Source: Maridesulfovibrio sp.
Lineage (GTDB): Bacteria > Desulfobacterota > Desulfovibrionia > Desulfovibrionales > Desulfovibrionaceae
NCBI RefSeq assembly: GCF_963678865.1
Contig: NZ_OY787459.1
Span: forward strand, 3,629,381 to 3,693,380
DNA: 64,000 bases
Direction: 5' to 3'
The notes under the pieces were generated by a model. It worked only from the letters and a program-made list of their open reading frames with translations. It ran no database searches and was not told the DNA's origin. Both the position numbers and the translations under genes were made by a program. Of this stretch, positions 46,357-55,516 are shown piece after piece (positions within the stretch are counted from its first letter, which is position 1; the number at the start of each line of letters is the position of its first letter).

Positions 46357-48141
46357 TCAGAATTCCCTTTCCATATGTGAAGCAATAAGCGTTTCCGAAT
46401 CCACCACAAGTGCATCATGTTCCCCCATCATGCCGAAGCCGAGGATAGGCAGCTTATAAATGGTGTTTACGGGAAGGGTGAATCCGGTGACTACTGCTTT
46501 CTGCTGGCGCAGGACTTCATCAACCATGATTGCAGCTACAGTGTCACCCATCTTTACAAGGATAACTTTTGGAATGACTTCATCATCCGGTTCCGGGAGG
46601 TCAAAAACCTTGTACATGCGTATCAGTGGATGAACCTTGCCGCGAACGGAAACTGTTTCCCGTCCATCGGGCAGGTCTGTGAATTCTTTTTCCACGGGTT
46701 CGTATACTTCAAGGACTTCCCGACTGGGAAAGATGAAAGTTTCAGGTCCGACTGTGGTGACCAGTGCGTCCACAATGCCTTCATTTACAGAACGGCTTAA
46801 GGGAATGGCTATGGTGAAGGTTGATCCTGCGCCAAGTTCGCTGGAGATGGATACCTTACCGTCCAATGTGTTCTGGATAGCAGTCACTACCGCATCCATA
46901 CCGACTCCGCGTCCGGAAATATCTGTTACTGCGCTGGCAGTGGAGAAACCGGACTGGAGGATGAACTCATAAATTTCTTCCTTGGTGTAATCAATTTCAG
47001 GATCGGCTAGCCCACGTTCCAGAGCTTTATTGAGCAGTATGTCCGCATCAAGCCCCTTACCGTCATCTATGATTTCAATGTAGGCGAAATCTCCTTTGCG
47101 GAAAGCATTCAGCTGAACCTTGCCGACTTCGTCCTTGCCGCACATCTGGCGGTCCTCGGAAGATTCTATTCCGTGGTCGAGGGCATTGCGCAGCAGGTGG
47201 ACCAGCGGTTCATTCAGGCATTCCACAATGGTCTTGTCCAAGGCCAGTTCCTCACCGGCGGTGGTAAATTTGATGCGTTTGTTGAGCTTTTGGGAGGTTG
47301 ATTTGACCAGTCTGTGCATGGGCATGAAGATTTGTTTCAGCGGCACCAGTCTGATTTCATCAACTTCTGATTGCAGATTGCGGATTACCTTATCCAGTTC
47401 GGACAGGCTGGAGGAAATTTTGGAAATATTATCCGTTTTGGTCTGGGCAATGACTGCGTAGGTAACCATAAGTTTACCAACTAACTCTATCAGTGAATCC
47501 AGCTGTTGGGTGGAAACACGGATGGATGAAATTGCCTGTGCATCTTTCTTTTTAGCGGAGGCAGGCTGGACTTTGCTGCTTTTTTCCTTTTCCGGAATCT
47601 GTTTGGCTGCTGCAGCCGGGATTTGGTCATTTTGCGGATCAGCAGTTATTTCCGGTTTATGAAGGCTGTCTTCAGGACCACCGGAAGGTTCCTGTGCCGG
47701 CTCTTCGACTTTTTCCCAGCCATCCGCTTCGTCCGGAATTTCTCCGGTCATTGCCAGCATCTCGGCCATCATTTCCTGTTCGTACTGATCCGGCGCATTT
47801 GCGAGGCCTTCACGGGATTTAAAGTCACATTCCGGTTCGGCTTCTTTTTTTGAATCAACGGGCGCGCCGCCATGATCCAGCAGTCCTCCGATGCAGTAGA
47901 AGAATTTTTTCTGGGCTTCACTGATATCCAGCAGGGCGGTGATAAGTTCCGGAGTTATGGTAGTGATGCCGTCAGCCAGCATGTCCATGAGGGCGATTAT
48001 CTGTGCCGACCTCATTTGGGCATTATCAAGGCCCGTAGCCCTTAAGATATCATTAATATCACCTGAGCCGTGCTCAAGAGCGATAATTGATTCTTGAAGC
48101 TGGCTAATGCAACTGGAAATACTGTCCTTCATTCTCTTCAA
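46357..48141 (-). CDS. cheA: CheA-family histidine kinase lacking a functional Hpt (P1) domain (P3-P4-P5 core)
   Basis: The dimerisation region is IRVSTQQLDSLIELVGKL. HATPase boxes are HLLRNALDHGIE, DDGKGL and GRGVGMD. A CheW-like C-terminal domain is present. The N-terminal ~100 aa are helical and have no HxxKG phosphorylation motif. Confidence 0.88.
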   Translation of the reverse strand: MKRMKDSISSCISQLQESIIALEHGSGDINDILRATGLDNAQMRSAQIIALMDMLADGITTITPELITALLDISEAQKKFFYCIGGLLDHGGAPVDSKKEAEPECDFKSREGLANAPDQYEQEMMAEMLAMTGEIPDEADGWEKVEEPAQEPSGGPEDSLHKPEITADPQNDQIPAAAAKQIPEKEKSSKVQPASAKKKDAQAISSIRVSTQQLDSLIELVGKLMVTYAVIAQTKTDNISKISSSLSELDKVIRNLQSEVDEIRLVPLKQIFMPMHRLVKSTSQKLNKRIKFTTAGEELALDKTIVECLNEPLVHLLRNALDHGIESSEDRQMCGKDEVGKVQLNAFRKGDFAYIEIIDDGKGLDADILLNKALERGLADPEIDYTKEEIYEFILQSGFSTASAVTDISGRGVGMDAVVTAIQNTLDGKVSISSELGAGSTFTIAIPLSRSVNEGIVDALVTTVGPETFIFPSREVLEVYEPVEKEFTDLPDGRETVSVRGKVHPLIRMYKVFDLPEPDDEVIPKVILVKMGDTVAAIMVDEVLRQQKAVVTGFTLPVNTIYKLPILGFGMMGEHDALVVDSETLIASHMEREF

Positions 48142-48875
48142 ACTCCGGTGTTGTTCAGGAAGCTTTCCCTGCTTTCAAAAACAGTCAGATACCGTTGGAA
48201 GCCCCATGAATAAAATGTGCTCATGCAATGGCTGTTCATGCCGGTTATACCTATATCACAGGTCTCGGAATATGAAGCTATAAGTTCGAAAAATGCTGAC
48301 CCTACGGAGACTGCTGCTCCGAGATCAAAAAGAAGTCTGTTCTCGTAATTCACGGATTGCAGATTTTGGTCAACTATTTCAAGTTGTTTGGTGTTGTAAA
48401 GCCTGCTTACTTTCAGGTTCAGTATTTGCGCGCCCGGGAAATTTTCAATTTCCAAGGGGTCTATGTCTGATTCATCAACCCCTGCCGCCTTGGGACCGCC
48501 ACCGGAGAGCCGGGCTTCAATCTCGTCCGTGAGGGTCTGGTCATAGCTGCCGGATTCCCGCAGCTGCTCAATGAGCATGAAGATTGTGTTTACGGATTCG
48601 ATGGCGAGGGCGATCTGCATGAGATCATGTTCAACCTCTCCGGCCTGCATTTTTTTTAGAAAATCTTCCACTTTGTGGGTAAAGGTGGAGGCTGGTTCAA
48701 ATCCGGACATAAAACCGGTGACGCCTTTGATGGTGTGCAGTGGGCGTGAAAGAACCTCGATTCCTTCTTCGATGCGTTGTTCGTCAAGGAGATCTATACC
48801 TTCCAGTACCTGAGGATAGTACTTGTCGTTTACTTCTGAGAAGAATTCTTCAACAAGGGAATCATCTTCACTCAT
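48138..48875 (-). CDS. Hpt domain protein with a C-terminal STAS-like domain
   Basis: The N-terminal part, LSRPLHTIKGVTGFMSGF, is the Hpt HxxKG motif. The C-terminal ~100 aa have a STAS-like alpha/beta pattern, a weaker call. Its stop overlaps the cheA-like start (ATGA). Confidence 0.72.
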   Translation of the reverse strand: MSEDDSLVEEFFSEVNDKYYPQVLEGIDLLDEQRIEEGIEVLSRPLHTIKGVTGFMSGFEPASTFTHKVEDFLKKMQAGEVEHDLMQIALAIESVNTIFMLIEQLRESGSYDQTLTDEIEARLSGGGPKAAGVDESDIDPLEIENFPGAQILNLKVSRLYNTKQLEIVDQNLQSVNYENRLLFDLGAAVSVGSAFFELIASYSETCDIGITGMNSHCMSTFYSWGFQRYLTVFESRESFLNNTGV

Positions 48876-48899
48876 CGCGTGTGCTCCGTCAGCCGCTGT

Positions 48900-49295
48900 T
48901 TATTTATTCATCAGCCCGATTTTTTCTAGTTCTTTATACAGTTTTTCACGTTCAACCGGTTTTACTATGAATGCGGATGCTTCAACGTCGTGAAAGGATC
49001 GTATTACTGTTTTGGGATCATCAAGTGCGGTGGTCATAATCACTCTGCAGTGCTTGGTAATCCCTTTTTTCTTTTCATAGGCCCTGATTTCTTCAAGTGC
49101 AGACAGCCCGTCCTGCTTTGGCATCATTATGTCCATAAGTATAAGCGTGTACGGCTCATTTTCCTCGCAGGCCAGTTTGAAAGCTTCGACCGCCTCTTTC
49201 CCGTCTACAGCGATGTCTATCGCGAAAAGCGGGGCAAGAAAGGTTGAGAGCAGTTTTCGTCCTACAAATTCATCCTCGGCAATCAGCGCGCGCAT
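48900..49295 (-). CDS. single-domain CheY-like response regulator
   Basis: ALIAEDE...LILMDIMMPKQDG...VKP is a REC pattern. The ATG at 49295 has GGAGG 5 nt upstream; the track start at 49322 is a TTG. Confidence 0.85.
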   Translation of the reverse strand: MRALIAEDEFVGRKLLSTFLAPLFAIDIAVDGKEAVEAFKLACEENEPYTLILMDIMMPKQDGLSALEEIRAYEKKKGITKHCRVIMTTALDDPKTVIRSFHDVEASAFIVKPVEREKLYKELEKIGLMNK

Positions 49296-49452
49296 TAATT
49301 CCTCCATGCAAAAATAGATCAACTTAAATGATTACATATCATTTTTTTTAAATCAATAAAATGTCAATATCTATGATGATACTTGAAGCATAAATTTACG
49401 TCGACCCCAACTGCCCTTGCAAACTTGCCAAAGGTTGGGTACGCAGTACGCC

Positions 49453-50047: not shown

Positions 50048-51715
50048 TTAAAGTTTTTCAGCCAATTCCGTCCATTTATGCTCGACATCTTTCCAGAGGC
50101 GGGAGATGTCCCGGCTGAAAAGAGTGTTCAGGTCCTGTTCGCTGTATTTGCTCTCCAGTTTTATTTTGTTGCCGAAAACCTGAGCCATGGAACGCACATT
50201 GCTTGCCTTGGCAAGGCTTGAGTGCTGGATGTGTCCGATGCGCAGCTGTCCGGCGTATATGTGCTCATATCCGCCCAGCGCGGCACGCAGGTCCCGTTCA
50301 AGATCATCGAATTGAGTGGGATTGAAACGTACATCAAACGGGCCGCACTTATGGATGGCCTCCATGTTCAGCATGTGGCAGCAGCCCGAAACGTGCATTG
50401 CCGGGCGGGTATATGAAAACTGTCCGTAATCAAAGCCGTTGCGGCAGCTGTCAAAGATCTTGATTCGTTCGGTAAGCCCTTCGATCTGGGAGGTCCCGTT
50501 TCCGGGAGGAAAAAGGTGGTAGTCCGCAGATTGCAGAGAGCGCGGGGTTCCGGTTGAGGTTATGCGGCAGCCTACGGCGCCGGGGTCTTTATATTTGTCA
50601 GCTGTTGCCAGCAATTCTTCCAGCCAGTCGGACTCCAGCTCCACATCATCATCCAGGAATACTGCCCATTTGGCTTTGCGTACTTCCGGGTCTGCCAGAA
50701 GCCAGTTCCGTGCTGCCGGGGCACCCACGTTAACCTGCAGTTGTATTTTCTTGTAGTATCCCTGTTTGAAAAGATACTGAGCTTCATTCATAACCTGCCC
50801 GGTGTTGTCGTCAGAGCCGTTGTTCAAAGCATAAATACGCGCTTTTCCAATTTTTGATGCGGCCAGGTTTTTCAGGGTATTCTCAATGAGTTTTCCGTTA
50901 TTCCATGAGTAGAGCAGTATGGCTGCCTCATCAGATTTTTCAAGGGCGCGTCCGGTCTCAATCGGGTTGAGCTGGCTGTGCAGTTTCTGCCCCCAGTTCA
51001 GGTTCCAGAAGTTGTTTTTCCATAGTTCGGCCAGTATTGCCGTCCCTTCATCTTTCTGCCCGGAGCGCAGCAGCAGTTCCGAATGCATGTAGTCCATCCA
51101 CAGGGACCAGATGTCGTGGTCCAGCTTTTTCAGCTCATGCAGGGTTTCATCAATAGCCCCGTACAAAAAATTGAACTGTACTTTAAGTATTTGTTTAAGC
51201 TGGCTAAAATCATCATCCCATTTGACTAGATCCAAAGCTGTCCGAGGTAGCTCTGCGTTTCCCATGCGCAAAAGGGTGTCCCATGAATGGGCCAGCCAGT
51301 TCAGGCCGTCTGTTCCGCGAAGCAGCGGAAAAAGATGGCGGACAATCAGAGCCTGATCTCCGGCCTGAAGTAGATTGTCAAGATCCTGCAGGGGGATCTC
51401 GCTGACCGGGGCGGATATAATTTTCTGTAAAATTCTGATTAGGGCCGCCGGCAGGCATGCGGAATCGTTAAGACCCATGCATTTTGCCGCAGCACTGCGG
51501 TCAAGCGGGTTCTGTTGCCATGCGAGCAGAGCCAGTCCTGATCCCGCATCCGAGAACATGGGCGTTGCTGTTGAGAAATGCTGGAAAGCATTGATCATGC
51601 CGTTTTGGTGGGATAATTCTTCGGTTCCCAATACCCAGAGAGGGATGGAATCTTTTACAGCTGCAAGAAATGAATTTATTTTTTGTGCACTGAAATTATT
51701 TATAATGGCAACCAT
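50048..51715 (-). CDS. glycosyltransferase family 2 with a ~270-aa N-terminal helical domain
   Basis: A GT-A core (ILLYSWNNGKLIENTLKNL...NNGSDDNT) and a DxD motif (FLDDDVE). 555 aa. Confidence 0.78.
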   Translation of the reverse strand: MVAIINNFSAQKINSFLAAVKDSIPLWVLGTEELSHQNGMINAFQHFSTATPMFSDAGSGLALLAWQQNPLDRSAAAKCMGLNDSACLPAALIRILQKIISAPVSEIPLQDLDNLLQAGDQALIVRHLFPLLRGTDGLNWLAHSWDTLLRMGNAELPRTALDLVKWDDDFSQLKQILKVQFNFLYGAIDETLHELKKLDHDIWSLWMDYMHSELLLRSGQKDEGTAILAELWKNNFWNLNWGQKLHSQLNPIETGRALEKSDEAAILLYSWNNGKLIENTLKNLAASKIGKARIYALNNGSDDNTGQVMNEAQYLFKQGYYKKIQLQVNVGAPAARNWLLADPEVRKAKWAVFLDDDVELESDWLEELLATADKYKDPGAVGCRITSTGTPRSLQSADYHLFPPGNGTSQIEGLTERIKIFDSCRNGFDYGQFSYTRPAMHVSGCCHMLNMEAIHKCGPFDVRFNPTQFDDLERDLRAALGGYEHIYAGQLRIGHIQHSSLAKASNVRSMAQVFGNKIKLESKYSEQDLNTLFSRDISRLWKDVEHKWTELAEKL

Positions 51716-51910
51716 CTATTATCTCCATATGTTCTGATGCTGATTGCATTTTATTAAGCCAAAGCAGAGACAAAGTCATGCAGCTTCTGCGTGTTTTGCT
51801 GTAGTTCTTCAATAATGATAATTCAGGCAGACCAAAAGATGCTGGACATAAGGCATAAAACTGGTATTAGTAGTCGCTCCGTATGCCGTGATGTATTTGG
51901 AGTTAAAGTT

Positions 51911-52519
51911 ATGAGTGAGCAGGAAGCTGTAGACATCATAAGAACTGGGGGAGTTTTGGTTTACCCCACGGAAACCCTTTTTGCCGTTGGCGCCGATGCC
52001 ATGGACGAGAGGGCTGCAAACCGTGTTGCCCGAATAAAGGACCGCCCTGTTTCCAAACCTCTGCCTCTGATAATAGGCAGTATTGAGCAGCTTGATCTGG
52101 TTACGGAAACAATTTCTCCTGAACTTCTGAAGCTTACCCGTATTTTTTGGCCCGGTCCGCTTTCCATTCTGGTCAAAGCCCGTGAAGAGCTTCCCTCCGC
52201 CGTGAAGGATTCCAGAGGATATACTTCCGTGCGTTGGACCGAACATCCTCTGGCTGCCAGCCTTTGCCTCAAGGCCCACACTCCTCTAATTGCCACAAGT
52301 GCAAACATGAGCGGAAAGCCCGGTACCGGGGTTGCCGAAGAGCTGGATGAAGAGTTGACCATGATGGTGGAGGGCGTTTTCAATGCCCAGCCTGGTCCTA
52401 AGGGCGGAGAGCCTTCTACAGTTGTGGAGCCTTTGTCGGGAAACCGGATTAAGATTTATCGGGATGGGGTGGTCTCACGTTTGGCGCTTGCCCGTGCCGG
52501 ATTTGTAATTATAGATTAA
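51911..52519 (+). CDS. tsaC: L-threonylcarbamoyladenylate synthase (TsaC/YrdC family)
   Basis: VLVYPTETLFAVGADA, IKDRPVSKPLPL and ATSANMSGKP are YrdC motifs. The ATG at 51911 has GGAG upstream. Confidence 0.9.
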   Translation: MSEQEAVDIIRTGGVLVYPTETLFAVGADAMDERAANRVARIKDRPVSKPLPLIIGSIEQLDLVTETISPELLKLTRIFWPGPLSILVKAREELPSAVKDSRGYTSVRWTEHPLAASLCLKAHTPLIATSANMSGKPGTGVAEELDEELTMMVEGVFNAQPGPKGGEPSTVVEPLSGNRIKIYRDGVVSRLALARAGFVIID

Positions 52520-52546
52520 AAATTTTCTGGATAATGATTTTTTATG

Positions 52547-52575
52547 GCCTGTCCTCAAATGAGGGCAGGCTTTTT
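52547..52575 (+). terminator. intrinsic terminator of tsaC
   Basis: GCCTGTCCTC-AAAT-GAGGGCAGGC hairpin followed by TTTTT. Confidence 0.85.
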
Positions 52576-52745
52576 GATTTTAGATCGGTAAAAAATATTT
52601 TACTCCCGATCCTGTGTTTTCAGGTTAACCTGCGGTGGGGTAAAAAAATTTAAACCAATAAGTGTTTTTTTAGACTGTAGCTGCTGTTTGTATTTATATA
52701 GTTATTACAGTGTTTTATGTTTGATATTGCGTGCCTTTATGGGTT

Positions 52746-52761
52746 TGGCACGCCAGTTGCT
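52746..52761 (+). promoter_or_regulatory. sigma-54 (RpoN) -24/-12 promoter, copy 1
   Basis: TGGCACGCCAGTTGCT has exact GG-N10-GC spacing and matches the consensus TGGCACG-N4-TTGCW at every specified position. Confidence 0.72.
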
Positions 52762-52770
52762 AGATAGTAA

Positions 52771-52839
52771 TTACCTTCAAACTTTTGCTGATAAAAATGC
52801 TGAAACGGGCCTCGTCGGAATTACCGACGGGGCCTTTTT
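52771..52839 (+). ncRNA. candidate sigma-54-dependent small RNA, copy 1 (~69 nt)
   Basis: The predicted +1 lies about 11-12 nt after the -12 GC. The 5' end is UUACCUUCAAAC, followed by an AU-rich stretch. The transcript ends in the hairpin GGGCCUCGUCGG/CCGACGGGGCC (52807-52834) plus U5. No RBS or plausible ORF is present. The ends are predictions. Confidence 0.55.
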
Positions 52840-53094
52840 CATTTGGGGGTATTTTTTTGAATTTAAATTTTGAAGATGGTCTTGAAACGGCGGTTTCTGA
52901 TTTTTTGAGTTTTTGGCTTTTTTACCGGCTATACCGGTAAAAAATATTTTACTCCCGATCCTGTGTTTTCAGGTTAATCTGCAGTGGGGTAAAAAAATTT
53001 AAACCAATAAGTGCTTTTTCAGATTGTAGCTGCTGTTTGTATTTATATAGTTATTACAGTGTGTTATCTTTGATAATGAGTGTCTTTAGGTGTT

Positions 53095-53110
53095 TGGCAC
53101 GCCAGTTGCT
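53095..53110 (+). promoter_or_regulatory. sigma-54 (RpoN) -24/-12 promoter, copy 2
   Basis: The same TGGCACGCCAGTTGCT sequence. Confidence 0.72.
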
Positions 53111-53119
53111 AGATAGTAA

Positions 53120-53188
53120 TTACCTTCAAACTTTTGCTGATAAAAATGCTGAAACGGGCCTCGTCGGAATTACCGACGGGGCCTTTTT
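53120..53188 (+). ncRNA. candidate sigma-54-dependent small RNA, copy 2 (~69 nt)
   Basis: Identical in sequence to copy 1. Terminator hairpin at 53156-53183 plus U5. Confidence 0.55.
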
Positions 53189-53473
53189 CATTTTGTGAAA
53201 GCGATTTCGGTGCTTTTCAGGCAGCTGTCCGGCTTTGCCGGACAGCCTGATTTCTTGTAAAACTGGGCTCTGTCCTTGATTAGGTAATTATTTCCAGAAA
53301 CGGTTAAATATTTTGAACCTGCGAGAATTGTGTCAACGAAGTGGACTTTAGGAAAAAAATACGGATTCACTTGTAATGAGATTCTATTCGCGGTATTTAC
53401 AAGAAATGATTGTCATTTGTTTTCTATGAAAAAAATAATATATTTGTATCAGATCTAAAGAAAGGCTGTTTTT

Positions 53474-53953
53474 ATGGTCGGCTCAAAACCGTGTCCTCAT
53501 TGCGGAAAAGATGTAGTGCATTACCGCAATCCTGTACCTACTGTTGATGTTGTAATTTATGATCCTGTCCTTGGTGTTGTGCTTATTGAGCGCAATAATC
53601 CTCCCCTTGGCTGGGCCTTGCCCGGCGGATTTGTTGATTATGGGGAGACTCTTGAACATGCTGCCGTGCGCGAGGCAAAAGAGGAAACCGGGCTTGATGT
53701 GGTCCTGACCGGATTGGTGGGGGTCTACTCAATGCCTTGCCGGGATGACCGCCAGCATACCATCAGTATTACCTACAGTGCTGTAACGGCTGATGTTTCG
53801 GCCTTGCAGGCCGGTGATGATGCCGGAGGGGCTCGTTTTTTCAAGTTGGACAGTCTGCCTGATCTGGTTTTTGACCACCGCGATATTCTTGGTGATTTTT
53901 CTTCAAAGCTGATCCGTCTGCAGGATCACGCTGCTGTTGGCAGTAAAAAATAA
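53474..53953 (+). CDS. NUDIX hydrolase with an N-terminal zinc-ribbon motif
   Basis: Nudix box [24 protein letters not shown], plus an N-terminal CPHCG. Confidence 0.88.
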
Positions 53954-55431: not shown

Positions 55432-55516
55432 TGTCTTCCTGTTTTTCAGAAGTTTAAAAAATTATACAAGCTGTTGAATGTATATAAATTCCAGCAATCC
55501 AGAGGATTTAAACCCG

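Follow-up and report, generated by a model that had tools for sequence, protein, structure and literature searches.

Tandem candidate sigma-54-dependent small RNAs between tsaC and the NUDIX-glgA-glgB genes of Maridesulfovibrio and its relatives

The window analysed here is a stretch of 64,000 nucleotides from Maridesulfovibrio sp. (contig NZ_OY787459.1), in which a gap of ~950 bp between tsaC and a NUDIX gene holds two near-identical units in tandem. Each unit, of ~264 bp, is composed of two 16-bp palindromes, a sigma-54 promoter and the template of an RNA of ~75 nt that ends in a terminator. Following the comparison of these units with those of relatives, we favour, with moderate confidence, the view that they are independent genes for activator-controlled, trans-acting small RNAs (sRNAs) of the anti-Shine-Dalgarno kind, whose dose would be set by tandem amplification. 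A reading made earlier from the sequence alone (the sequence-only reading) had proposed multicopy sRNAs driven by sigma-54 and a bacterial enhancer-binding protein (EBP); all that it predicted at the level of sequence was found, and the comparative data strengthen it.

Architecture of the tandem units

A repeat search identified a direct repeat of 264 nt (52581–52844 and 52930–53193) with 95% identity and a period of 349 bp. The duplication and its spacing had been described before with copies of 259 bp; the spacing stands, and the extent of each copy is now slightly larger. Pairwise alignment reproduced the reported difference counts: none from the −24 element to the terminator (52746–52844 against 53095–53193), seven in the ~33 nt just 5' of the −24 element, and five farther upstream. 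The gene setting was likewise confirmed, with tsaC (51791–52519; Pfam Sua5_yciO_yrdC) followed by the gap, the NUDIX gene (53474–53953), glgA and glgB. Homologues of tsaC assign the window to Maridesulfovibrio. The hairpin search also located a terminator-like hairpin that terminates tsaC (52546–52571, + strand), which would insulate the first unit from tsaC read-through.

The sequence TGGCACGCCAGTTGCT was present exactly twice in the window, at 52746–52761 (GG at 52747–52748, GC at 52759–52760) and at 53095–53110, both on the + strand, and these were also the only perfect matches to TGGCACN5TTGCW. The −24 GG and the −12 GC are exactly 10 nt apart within TGGCAC-N5-TTGCW, which bears out the earlier description of a textbook RpoN element with GG-N10-GC spacing. 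TGGCACGCCAGTTGCT further matches the Desulfovibrio sigma-54 consensus, tGGcacg-N4-tTGCt (PMC4641369), and the element was kept in more than 60 related units, with divergence of the flanking sequence.

Upstream of the promoter, each unit carries two 16-bp palindromes with the consensus GTAAAAAWWWTTKWAC, 52 bp apart, whose start positions are fixed at −158 to −154 and −106 to −102 from the −24 element. An alignment of the upstream regions of 39 units presented conservation at the two palindromes and the promoter only. These palindromes therefore lie where upstream activator sequences are expected, ~100 bp or more ahead of the promoter. In unit 1, site 1 (GTAAAAAATATTTTAC, 52588–52603, ~−158) and site 2 (GTAAAAAAATTTAAAC, 52640–52655, ~−106) scored 23.2 and 21.4 bits with a position weight matrix (PWM) and coincided with the conserved blocks; the same matrix placed the two sites of unit 2 at 52937–52952 and 52989–53004 (all four are recorded without a strand). 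At a threshold of 18 bits or more, seven matches were found in the window against 0.05 expected, and four of the seven were the unit sites. The paired 'GGTAAAAAAT' motifs noticed in the sequence-only reading are thus two conserved sites, each of which forms part of a longer palindrome. A further palindrome proposed in that reading as a site, CAGGTTAACCTG, was found in copy 1 between the two conserved palindromes; we rejected it as probably no binding site, because its stretch was not conserved in any relative in the 39-unit alignment.

A sequence resembling an IHF site (WATCAAN4TTR, at most one mismatch) was detected in 15 of the 39 units, 12 of them at −40/−41, compared with 10% of shuffled regions. 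In the window's own copies this site is poor, the best example having two mismatches and a different position. An inverted repeat, TTTTTTACCGG-CTATA-CCGGTAAAAAA, was also observed at 52918–52944, at the junction ahead of unit 2; the right arm extends into activator site 1 of that unit, and the repeat has no counterpart ahead of unit 1.

The RNA and its conservation in relatives

The first sRNA copy was placed at 52770–52844 (+ strand, ~75 nt) from its fold and a covariance model (CM) score of 92.7 bits, with a predicted 5' end at 52769–52773 and a 3' end in the T run at 52836–52844. The second copy, at 53119–53193 (+), is identical, as seen by alignment, hairpin search and the CM. An unpaired conserved 5' region, AUUACCUUCAAACUUUUGCUGA (52770–52791, +; alignment and folds), represents the putative anti-Shine-Dalgarno seed, and its core ACCUUCA (52773–52779) was invariant in 33 Maridesulfovibrio sequences. 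The terminator occupies 52801–52841 (+; hairpin search, folds and covariation), where a G+C-rich core stem is extended by pairing between an A tract and the U tract. In agreement with the hairpin and U run assigned earlier to each copy, the cores at 52807–52835 and 53156–53184 have 12 pairs (nine G-C) and lead into a T run. The 72-nt RNA folded at −26.3 kcal/mol (z = −4.9), with the first ~30 nt essentially unpaired. Another terminator-like hairpin, GCTGTCCGGCTTTGCCGGACAGC, with a weak T run, was observed at 53224–53246, 30 nt past the second sRNA copy and outside the repeat.

Comparison of 33 distinct RNAs showed that positions 4–10 (ACCUUCA) and 15–18 (UUUG) are invariant and unpaired. The A-rich linker between the seed and the hairpin differs by 1–3 nt between copies, even inside one genome, and there is therefore no conserved reading frame. 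As no Shine-Dalgarno sequence was found either and start codons were not conserved, the earlier statement that the units have no ribosome-binding site (RBS) or credible open reading frame (ORF) holds.

RNAalifold analysis of the 33 RNAs yielded a single helix, the terminator, with changes on both sides in nine of its 12 pairs, so the covariation expected of a conserved RNA was indeed present across relatives. In this helix 97% of the cells were paired, compared with 27–60% once the partners were slid by 1–3 columns. The number of double-change cells was 36, against 8.0 ± 2.7 in shuffled alignments, and none of 500 shuffles reached 36. The element thus has the marks of an intrinsic terminator, namely a G+C-rich stem kept by covariation and a U run. 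The compensatory changes, together with an invariant segment that begins exactly at the predicted +1, suggest that selection acts on the RNA and not on DNA sites alone.

RNAfold left the 5' end free and predicted one long hairpin in each of 38 RNAs from six lineages, as had been proposed for the single-stranded segment ahead of the hairpin. In every member of this set the hairpin is predicted to be lengthened, to ~17 bp, by pairing of the U tract with the A-rich sequence on its 5' side. The pairing takes the forms UGAAA/UUUCA, UCGAAAA/UUUUCGA, CCAAAA/UUUUGG and CGAGAA/UUCUCG, as judged from the per-sequence folds and by inspection; the MAFFT columns are one base out of register between these subtypes. 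No Rfam family was matched at the sRNAs at gathering score in the window and eight related loci, and a permissive search of the gap gave only sub-threshold noise (28 matches at E ≤ 10).

In seven relatives whose tsaC loci were retrieved, the gap ahead of NUDIX likewise carried two or three sigma-54 promoters followed by this RNA. When 185,579 species genomes were scanned for the promoter and seed, 12 stretches were returned, ten of which were of Maridesulfovibrio type (nine labelled Maridesulfovibrio and one a metagenome-assembled genome (MAG) of Desulfovibrio sp.). The other two, from Methylotenera and Leptolinea, lacked the remainder of the unit and were discarded as chance matches. The ten Maridesulfovibrio-type genomes have one locus each, with 2–7 head-to-tail units. 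Seven units with a period of ~302 bp, six of them nearly identical, were found in a Maridesulfovibrio MAG (locus L016, 5718–7627, −), and at least four in strain FT414 (L011 and L013). In M. frigidus, an opposite-strand gene for a thiamine-pyrophosphate enzyme lies between two sRNA units (L006, 5013–6632, −). In M. zosterae, an annotated 51-aa gene runs antisense over the first sRNA unit (L004, 4836–4991, −) and is probably a spurious call.

Five further loci hold one unit each: those of Pseudodesulfovibrio portus (L021), D. ferrophilus (L020) and Desulfocurvus (L023), together with L022 and L024. NUDIX lies on one side of the unit, and tsaC or an inserted kinase gene on the other. The CM built from Maridesulfovibrio scored these units at 20–26 bits only, although both palindromes and the promoter are in place and a hairpin follows the CU-rich 5' end. 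Copy number in the family therefore ranges from one to seven across sulfate-reducing Desulfovibrionaceae. The P. portus locus also has, ahead of a CbiK gene, a cobalamin riboswitch (218–393, −; 103.5 bits), which is unrelated to the units.

A metagenome scan was performed with the query palindrome-N34-38-palindrome-N84-100-TGGCAN6TTGC, in which the RNA part was left unspecified. The scan recovered 14 loci with 15 distinct promoters; downstream of each promoter came a CU-rich 5' end and then a hairpin, and in the longer contigs the order was tsaC-sRNA-NUDIX-glgA-pdxA. Across these 14 loci, the palindrome-palindrome-promoter layout appears to be tied exclusively to the sRNA family. Conservation across genera was confined to four parts of the unit, namely the palindromes, promoter, 5' end of the RNA and terminator pairing. 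The 5' ends of other lineages (AUCCUUCCUCCUUUUGCC, AUCCUUCUUCUUUUGCAC, UUCUUCCUUUAUUUUGCAC, AUCUUCUUUCUUUUGCG, CAUCCUUCGUUUUC) form a pyrimidine tract converging on the anti-Shine-Dalgarno sequence. Duplicated units were also seen outside Maridesulfovibrio (L029 at 1031 and 3068, −; L036 at 617 and 1050, +). Their 5' ends have diverged within one contig (for example AUAUCUUCUUUCUUUUGCG and AUUACCUUCUUUCUUUGCG), which suggests diversification of the seed following duplication.

Proposed mode of action, alternatives and the glycogen genes

The anatomy of the unit, its conservation, the compensatory terminator changes and the exclusive association of the layout with the RNA can be read from the aligned sequences themselves. 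From these features we infer transcription, dependence on sigma-54 and an EBP, action in trans and an anti-Shine-Dalgarno mechanism. In the proposed sequence of events, an EBP would bind the two 16-bp palindromes, whose centres lie ~100 and ~150 bp upstream, and, through DNA looping, activate RNA polymerase-sigma-54 at TGGCACGCCAGTTGCT. The IHF-like site could aid this looping in some relatives, the site in the window being weak. Transcription would start ~10–12 nt downstream of the promoter, on the conserved CU-rich sequence itself, and would be ended by the strong intrinsic terminator. The unpaired 5' end, (A)UUACCUUCA..CUUUUGC (AUCCUUCCUCCUUUUGC in other genera), would then act in trans as an anti-Shine-Dalgarno seed and block translation of target mRNAs by pairing with their purine-rich ribosome-binding regions. 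The tandem copies, two here and up to seven elsewhere, are uniform within a genome and would set the RNA dose when the activator fires. Tandem amplification and homogeneity within a genome (99 nt identical, with differing upstream spacers) point to selection for dose. Independence from the neighbouring genes is indicated by the tsaC terminator, a sigma-70-like promoter of NUDIX and the opposite-strand gene between the M. frigidus copies.

A candidate for the activator was found in three relatives. A one-component EBP with the domain order PAS, Sigma54_activat and HTH_8 is encoded near the unit in D. ferrophilus (L020, 1778–3205), Desulfocurvus (L023, 1–1186) and L024 (2399–3880), on the − strand in all cases, 1.5–4.5 kb from the unit and on the far side of SpoU-tsaC. 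Its PAS domain contains the pattern C-X8-C-X3-C. In the Fe-S EBP OrpR, redox sensing requires C52, C61 and C65, which have the same spacing (PMC8359166); by analogy, the pattern suggests an Fe-S cluster in the candidate. OrpR's own site, GGGCGYRTTTTGCGCCC, differs from the palindrome of the sRNA units. The DNA-binding helix of the candidate, ILGWGRSTLWRKMK, resembles the helix listed for DVU2960, which has no assigned motif, and GTACAAAATATTTTAC was considered as a possible site for the D. ferrophilus protein. We regard this PAS EBP as a candidate for the activator in these three lineages and not as an assignment.

Among the EBP motifs tabulated by Kazakov 2015 (PMC4641369), none matched the palindrome, and the tables include no D. 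salexigens site of the unit type. The nearest motif, DVU3381 (TGTATAAAAAATATACA), has GT-N11-AC compared with GT-N12-AC in the unit palindrome, and it too is given without a D. salexigens site. With half-site spacing one base shorter, it was rejected as a match and kept as a lead only.

Several observations weigh against the independent, activator-driven sRNA. No EBP signature (GAFTGA, ESELFGH) was present in any frame of the window, in line with the absence of an EBP gene reported before, and none was present in any Maridesulfovibrio locus fetched. The best 120 of at least 8,000 candidates scored as homologues of the D. ferrophilus PAS EBP included no Maridesulfovibrio protein, and the PAS domain alone as query gave three matches with no Maridesulfovibrio orthologue among them. 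The first 26 nt of the RNA were compared by RNAduplex with the translation-start regions of the 54 ORFs of the window, a single 64-kb stretch and too little sequence for target prediction, and no outlier was obtained (mean −11.7, standard deviation 2.3). The best duplex (−16.9) lies inside a gene, and NUDIX, glgA, glgB and tsaC were unremarkable, average or below. Complementarity alone would in any case be weak evidence for target pairing, because CU-rich seeds fit almost any Shine-Dalgarno sequence. The predicted pairing of the U tract with the A tract leaves only 3–4 free U, which would be atypical for a classical Hfq-dependent sRNA. Finally, in all lineages the unit lies immediately ahead of NUDIX-glgA and on its strand, a strict placement that would suit a role in cis as well.

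The downstream genes have regulatory sequences of their own. A lone third palindrome, GTTCAAAATATTTAAC, was identified between the last sRNA and NUDIX at 53303–53318 (− strand, sequence as read; PWM 22.7 bits). Its counterpart occupies the same relative place in L001, L003, L006, L007, L008, L010, L011, L012, L014, L017, L019, L022 and L024, and by eye in L028/L031, so that a matching site is seen in nearly all lineages, single-copy ones included. This palindrome is ~55 bp upstream of a sigma-70-like promoter, TTGTAA-N17-TATTTA (53371–53399, +), assigned to NUDIX-glgA-glgB as a conserved block in a seven-locus alignment. The promoter is ~70 nt ahead of the NUDIX start codon and invariant in the seven Maridesulfovibrio loci, where its surroundings diverge; the downstream operon is therefore likely to be independent of the sRNA promoters. 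Another palindrome, GTTTAAAAAATTATAC (55452–55467; 20.0 bits), lies in the 46-bp glgA-glgB spacer and is also found in L001 (7952) and L003 (7901).

The palindromes at NUDIX-glgA-glgB and in the glgA-glgB spacer point to a glycogen-related circuit for the activator and therefore for the sRNA. We treat it as a lead, and as a weaker inference than the sRNA itself, that both may belong to a circuit touching glycogen metabolism. A wider proposal is that a redox-sensing EBP drives an anti-Shine-Dalgarno sRNA of tunable dose and, through the same palindrome, controls NUDIX-glgA-glgB, thereby coupling energy or redox state to glycogen storage across Desulfovibrionaceae; this we put forward as speculative and, on balance, doubtful.

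The seventh PWM match has a different setting: the palindrome GTACAAAAAATTGAAC (51161–51176; 23.0 bits) is inside the gene of a GT2 glycosyltransferase (50048–51715, −). It is kept in L001, L003, L004, L008 and L017, which may be due to coding constraint or to a role as a distal site. Elsewhere in the neighbourhood, a cluster at 46357–49322 (−) encodes a CheA-like kinase, an Hpt-containing protein and a single-domain response regulator, and it adjoins SpoU/GT2/tsaC in Maridesulfovibrio, Pseudodesulfovibrio and L022.

Among the alternatives, the one nearest to the favoured explanation retains the sigma-54-dependent sRNA and replaces RBS occlusion with another role, as a sponge or decoy for an RNA or a CU-binding protein, or as an activator of translation. 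Multicopy decoy RNAs of the CsrB/RsmZ type are known, the conserved 5' region is longer than the anti-Shine-Dalgarno core (ACCUUCA..CUUUUGCUG), and the duplex scan of the window yielded no target. However, no repeated GGA or other repeated protein-binding motif was found within one RNA. The RNA instead has one single-stranded conserved stretch at its extreme 5' end, the usual layout of a seed-pairing sRNA, and this seed converges on CCUCC/CCUUC in different genera. We therefore consider such a role rather unlikely.

The main rival places the unit in cis, as a leader or attenuator of the glycogen genes. The sigma-54 promoters would then be conditional promoters for NUDIX-glgA-glgB(-pdxA), the hairpins regulated terminators, and the short RNAs by-products. 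The constant strand and position of the unit upstream of NUDIX-glgA in every lineage agree with this, as do the like palindromes, one ahead of NUDIX past the last unit and another in the spacer between glgA and glgB. However, a transcript from the first copy would need to read through 2–7 strong terminators (12 bp with 9 G-C, ~17 bp when extended), and no antiterminator fold was predicted, the 5' 20 nt being unpaired in all members. NUDIX also has a conserved sigma-70-like promoter of its own, a convergent gene separates the copies in M. frigidus, and amplification of whole units suits the dosage of a product and not a leader. A leader is accordingly an unlikely explanation, a little below the sponge or decoy.

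That the units are an unexpressed duplicated relic, or a protein-binding DNA element such as an activator 'sink', is very improbable, given that compensatory changes preserve the hairpin, that the invariant segment falls exactly at the predicted +1, and that hairpin and U tract are retained in all six lineages. A small protein is scarcely credible: mechanically called ORFs with TTG starts (52785–52940 and 53037–53198) do overlap the units, but they have no Shine-Dalgarno sequence or conserved start codon, the 1–3 nt linker variation breaks the frame even in one genome, and the hairpin changes are compensatory and not synonymous.

Comparison with known systems

Very little has been charted of post-transcriptional regulation in sulfate-reducing bacteria, and the few sigma-54-dependent non-coding RNAs (ncRNAs) noted in D. 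vulgaris and G20 have no known function. The sRNA family would provide an unusually complete, testable blueprint, with an enhancer motif, a promoter, a predicted +1, a seed, copy-number variation from one to seven and a fixed address. A covariance model of the family would be an addition to Rfam and would prevent spurious ORF calls in the gap, such as the 51-aa gene of M. zosterae.

Vibrio Qrr1-5, which depend on sigma-54 and LuxO, resemble the units in being near-identical and multicopy, each with its own sigma-54 promoter, activator sites, seed and terminator. Their copy number varies from 1 to 5 between species, compared with 1 to 7 in the present family, and the same logic of dose by copy number is likely. 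Qrr RNAs differ in having about four stem-loops and dispersed copies, whereas the window RNA is ~75 nt long with one hairpin and is arranged head-to-tail at one locus. The LuxO consensus is TTGCA-N3-TGCAA, and the unit activator site, GTAAAA-N4-TTTTAC (GTAAAAAWWWTTKWAC), is unlike it. No match to Qrr in sequence or structure was found, and Qrr was not among the 28 sub-threshold Rfam matches in the gap; Rfam gave no match to Pxr either, in keeping with the sequence-only reading, which had recognised the sequence as neither.

The Nostoc/Anabaena NsiR1 genes form a head-to-tail array of sRNA genes of ~60 nt, each with its own regulated promoter and terminator, and in this they are like the window array. 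NsiR1 promoters are NtcA/HetR-dependent, and NsiR1 belongs to another phylum and another promoter class; its Rfam model (RF02399) scored 14.3 bits here against a gathering score of 39. Listeria LhrC1-5, the streptococcal csRNAs and staphylococcal RsaE are also multicopy, partly in tandem (LhrC1-4), and are under dedicated signalling systems; their C/U-rich single-stranded motifs pair with ribosome-binding sites. They differ from the window sRNA in being sigma-A/two-component-controlled RNAs of Firmicutes, with several UCCC/CCUCC motifs per RNA and unrelated sequence. For Myxococcus Pxr, dependence on sigma-54 and on a regulator of the NtrC type has been proposed, and tandem paralogues are reported in some relatives (PMC5568312). 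Pxr, from the former Deltaproteobacteria, has three stem-loops and adjoins its regulator gene, unlike the window sRNA.

Precedents also come from the clade itself, where sigma-54/EBP-dependent ncRNAs are on record in D. vulgaris Hildenborough (four, at positions 724743, 750515, 2456539 and 3458960) and D. alaskensis G20 (two, at 3627439 and 86651) (Rajeev 2011, PMC3333781; Kazakov 2015, PMC4641369; Kuehl 2014, PMC4045070). The D. vulgaris regulons concerned are those of DVU0653, DVU0679, DVU2359 and DVU1419. They share with the window sRNA the bacterial family, the promoter consensus tGGcacg-N4-tTGCt, the nature of short unannotated transcripts and EBP sites ~100 bp upstream. An sRNA of this kind is therefore less unusual in the clade than the earlier reading implied, because sigma-54 sRNAs had already been documented in Desulfovibrio. 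The D. vulgaris ncRNAs are single copy and adjoin their own EBP genes (DVU0653, DVU0679, DVU2359), unlike the window sRNA. The EBP motifs of DVU0653 (TGTCCGCGATCGCGGACA) and DVU2359 (TTACGAAATTTCGTAA), the two covered by this comparison, differ from the unit palindrome. A literature search by sequence string and keywords gave no paper on this RNA family, the keywords returning general Desulfovibrio sigma-54 papers only.

Sigma-54/EBP-dependent ncRNAs in Desulfovibrio and multicopy sigma-54 sRNAs in Vibrio (Qrr) are thus already known. What appears new, judged from the Rfam and literature searches, is an RNA family with its own enhancer motif, a fixed address at the glycogen genes across genera and one- to sevenfold tandem arrangement, which is set apart from the D. 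vulgaris ncRNAs by location, copy number and the two EBP motifs compared.

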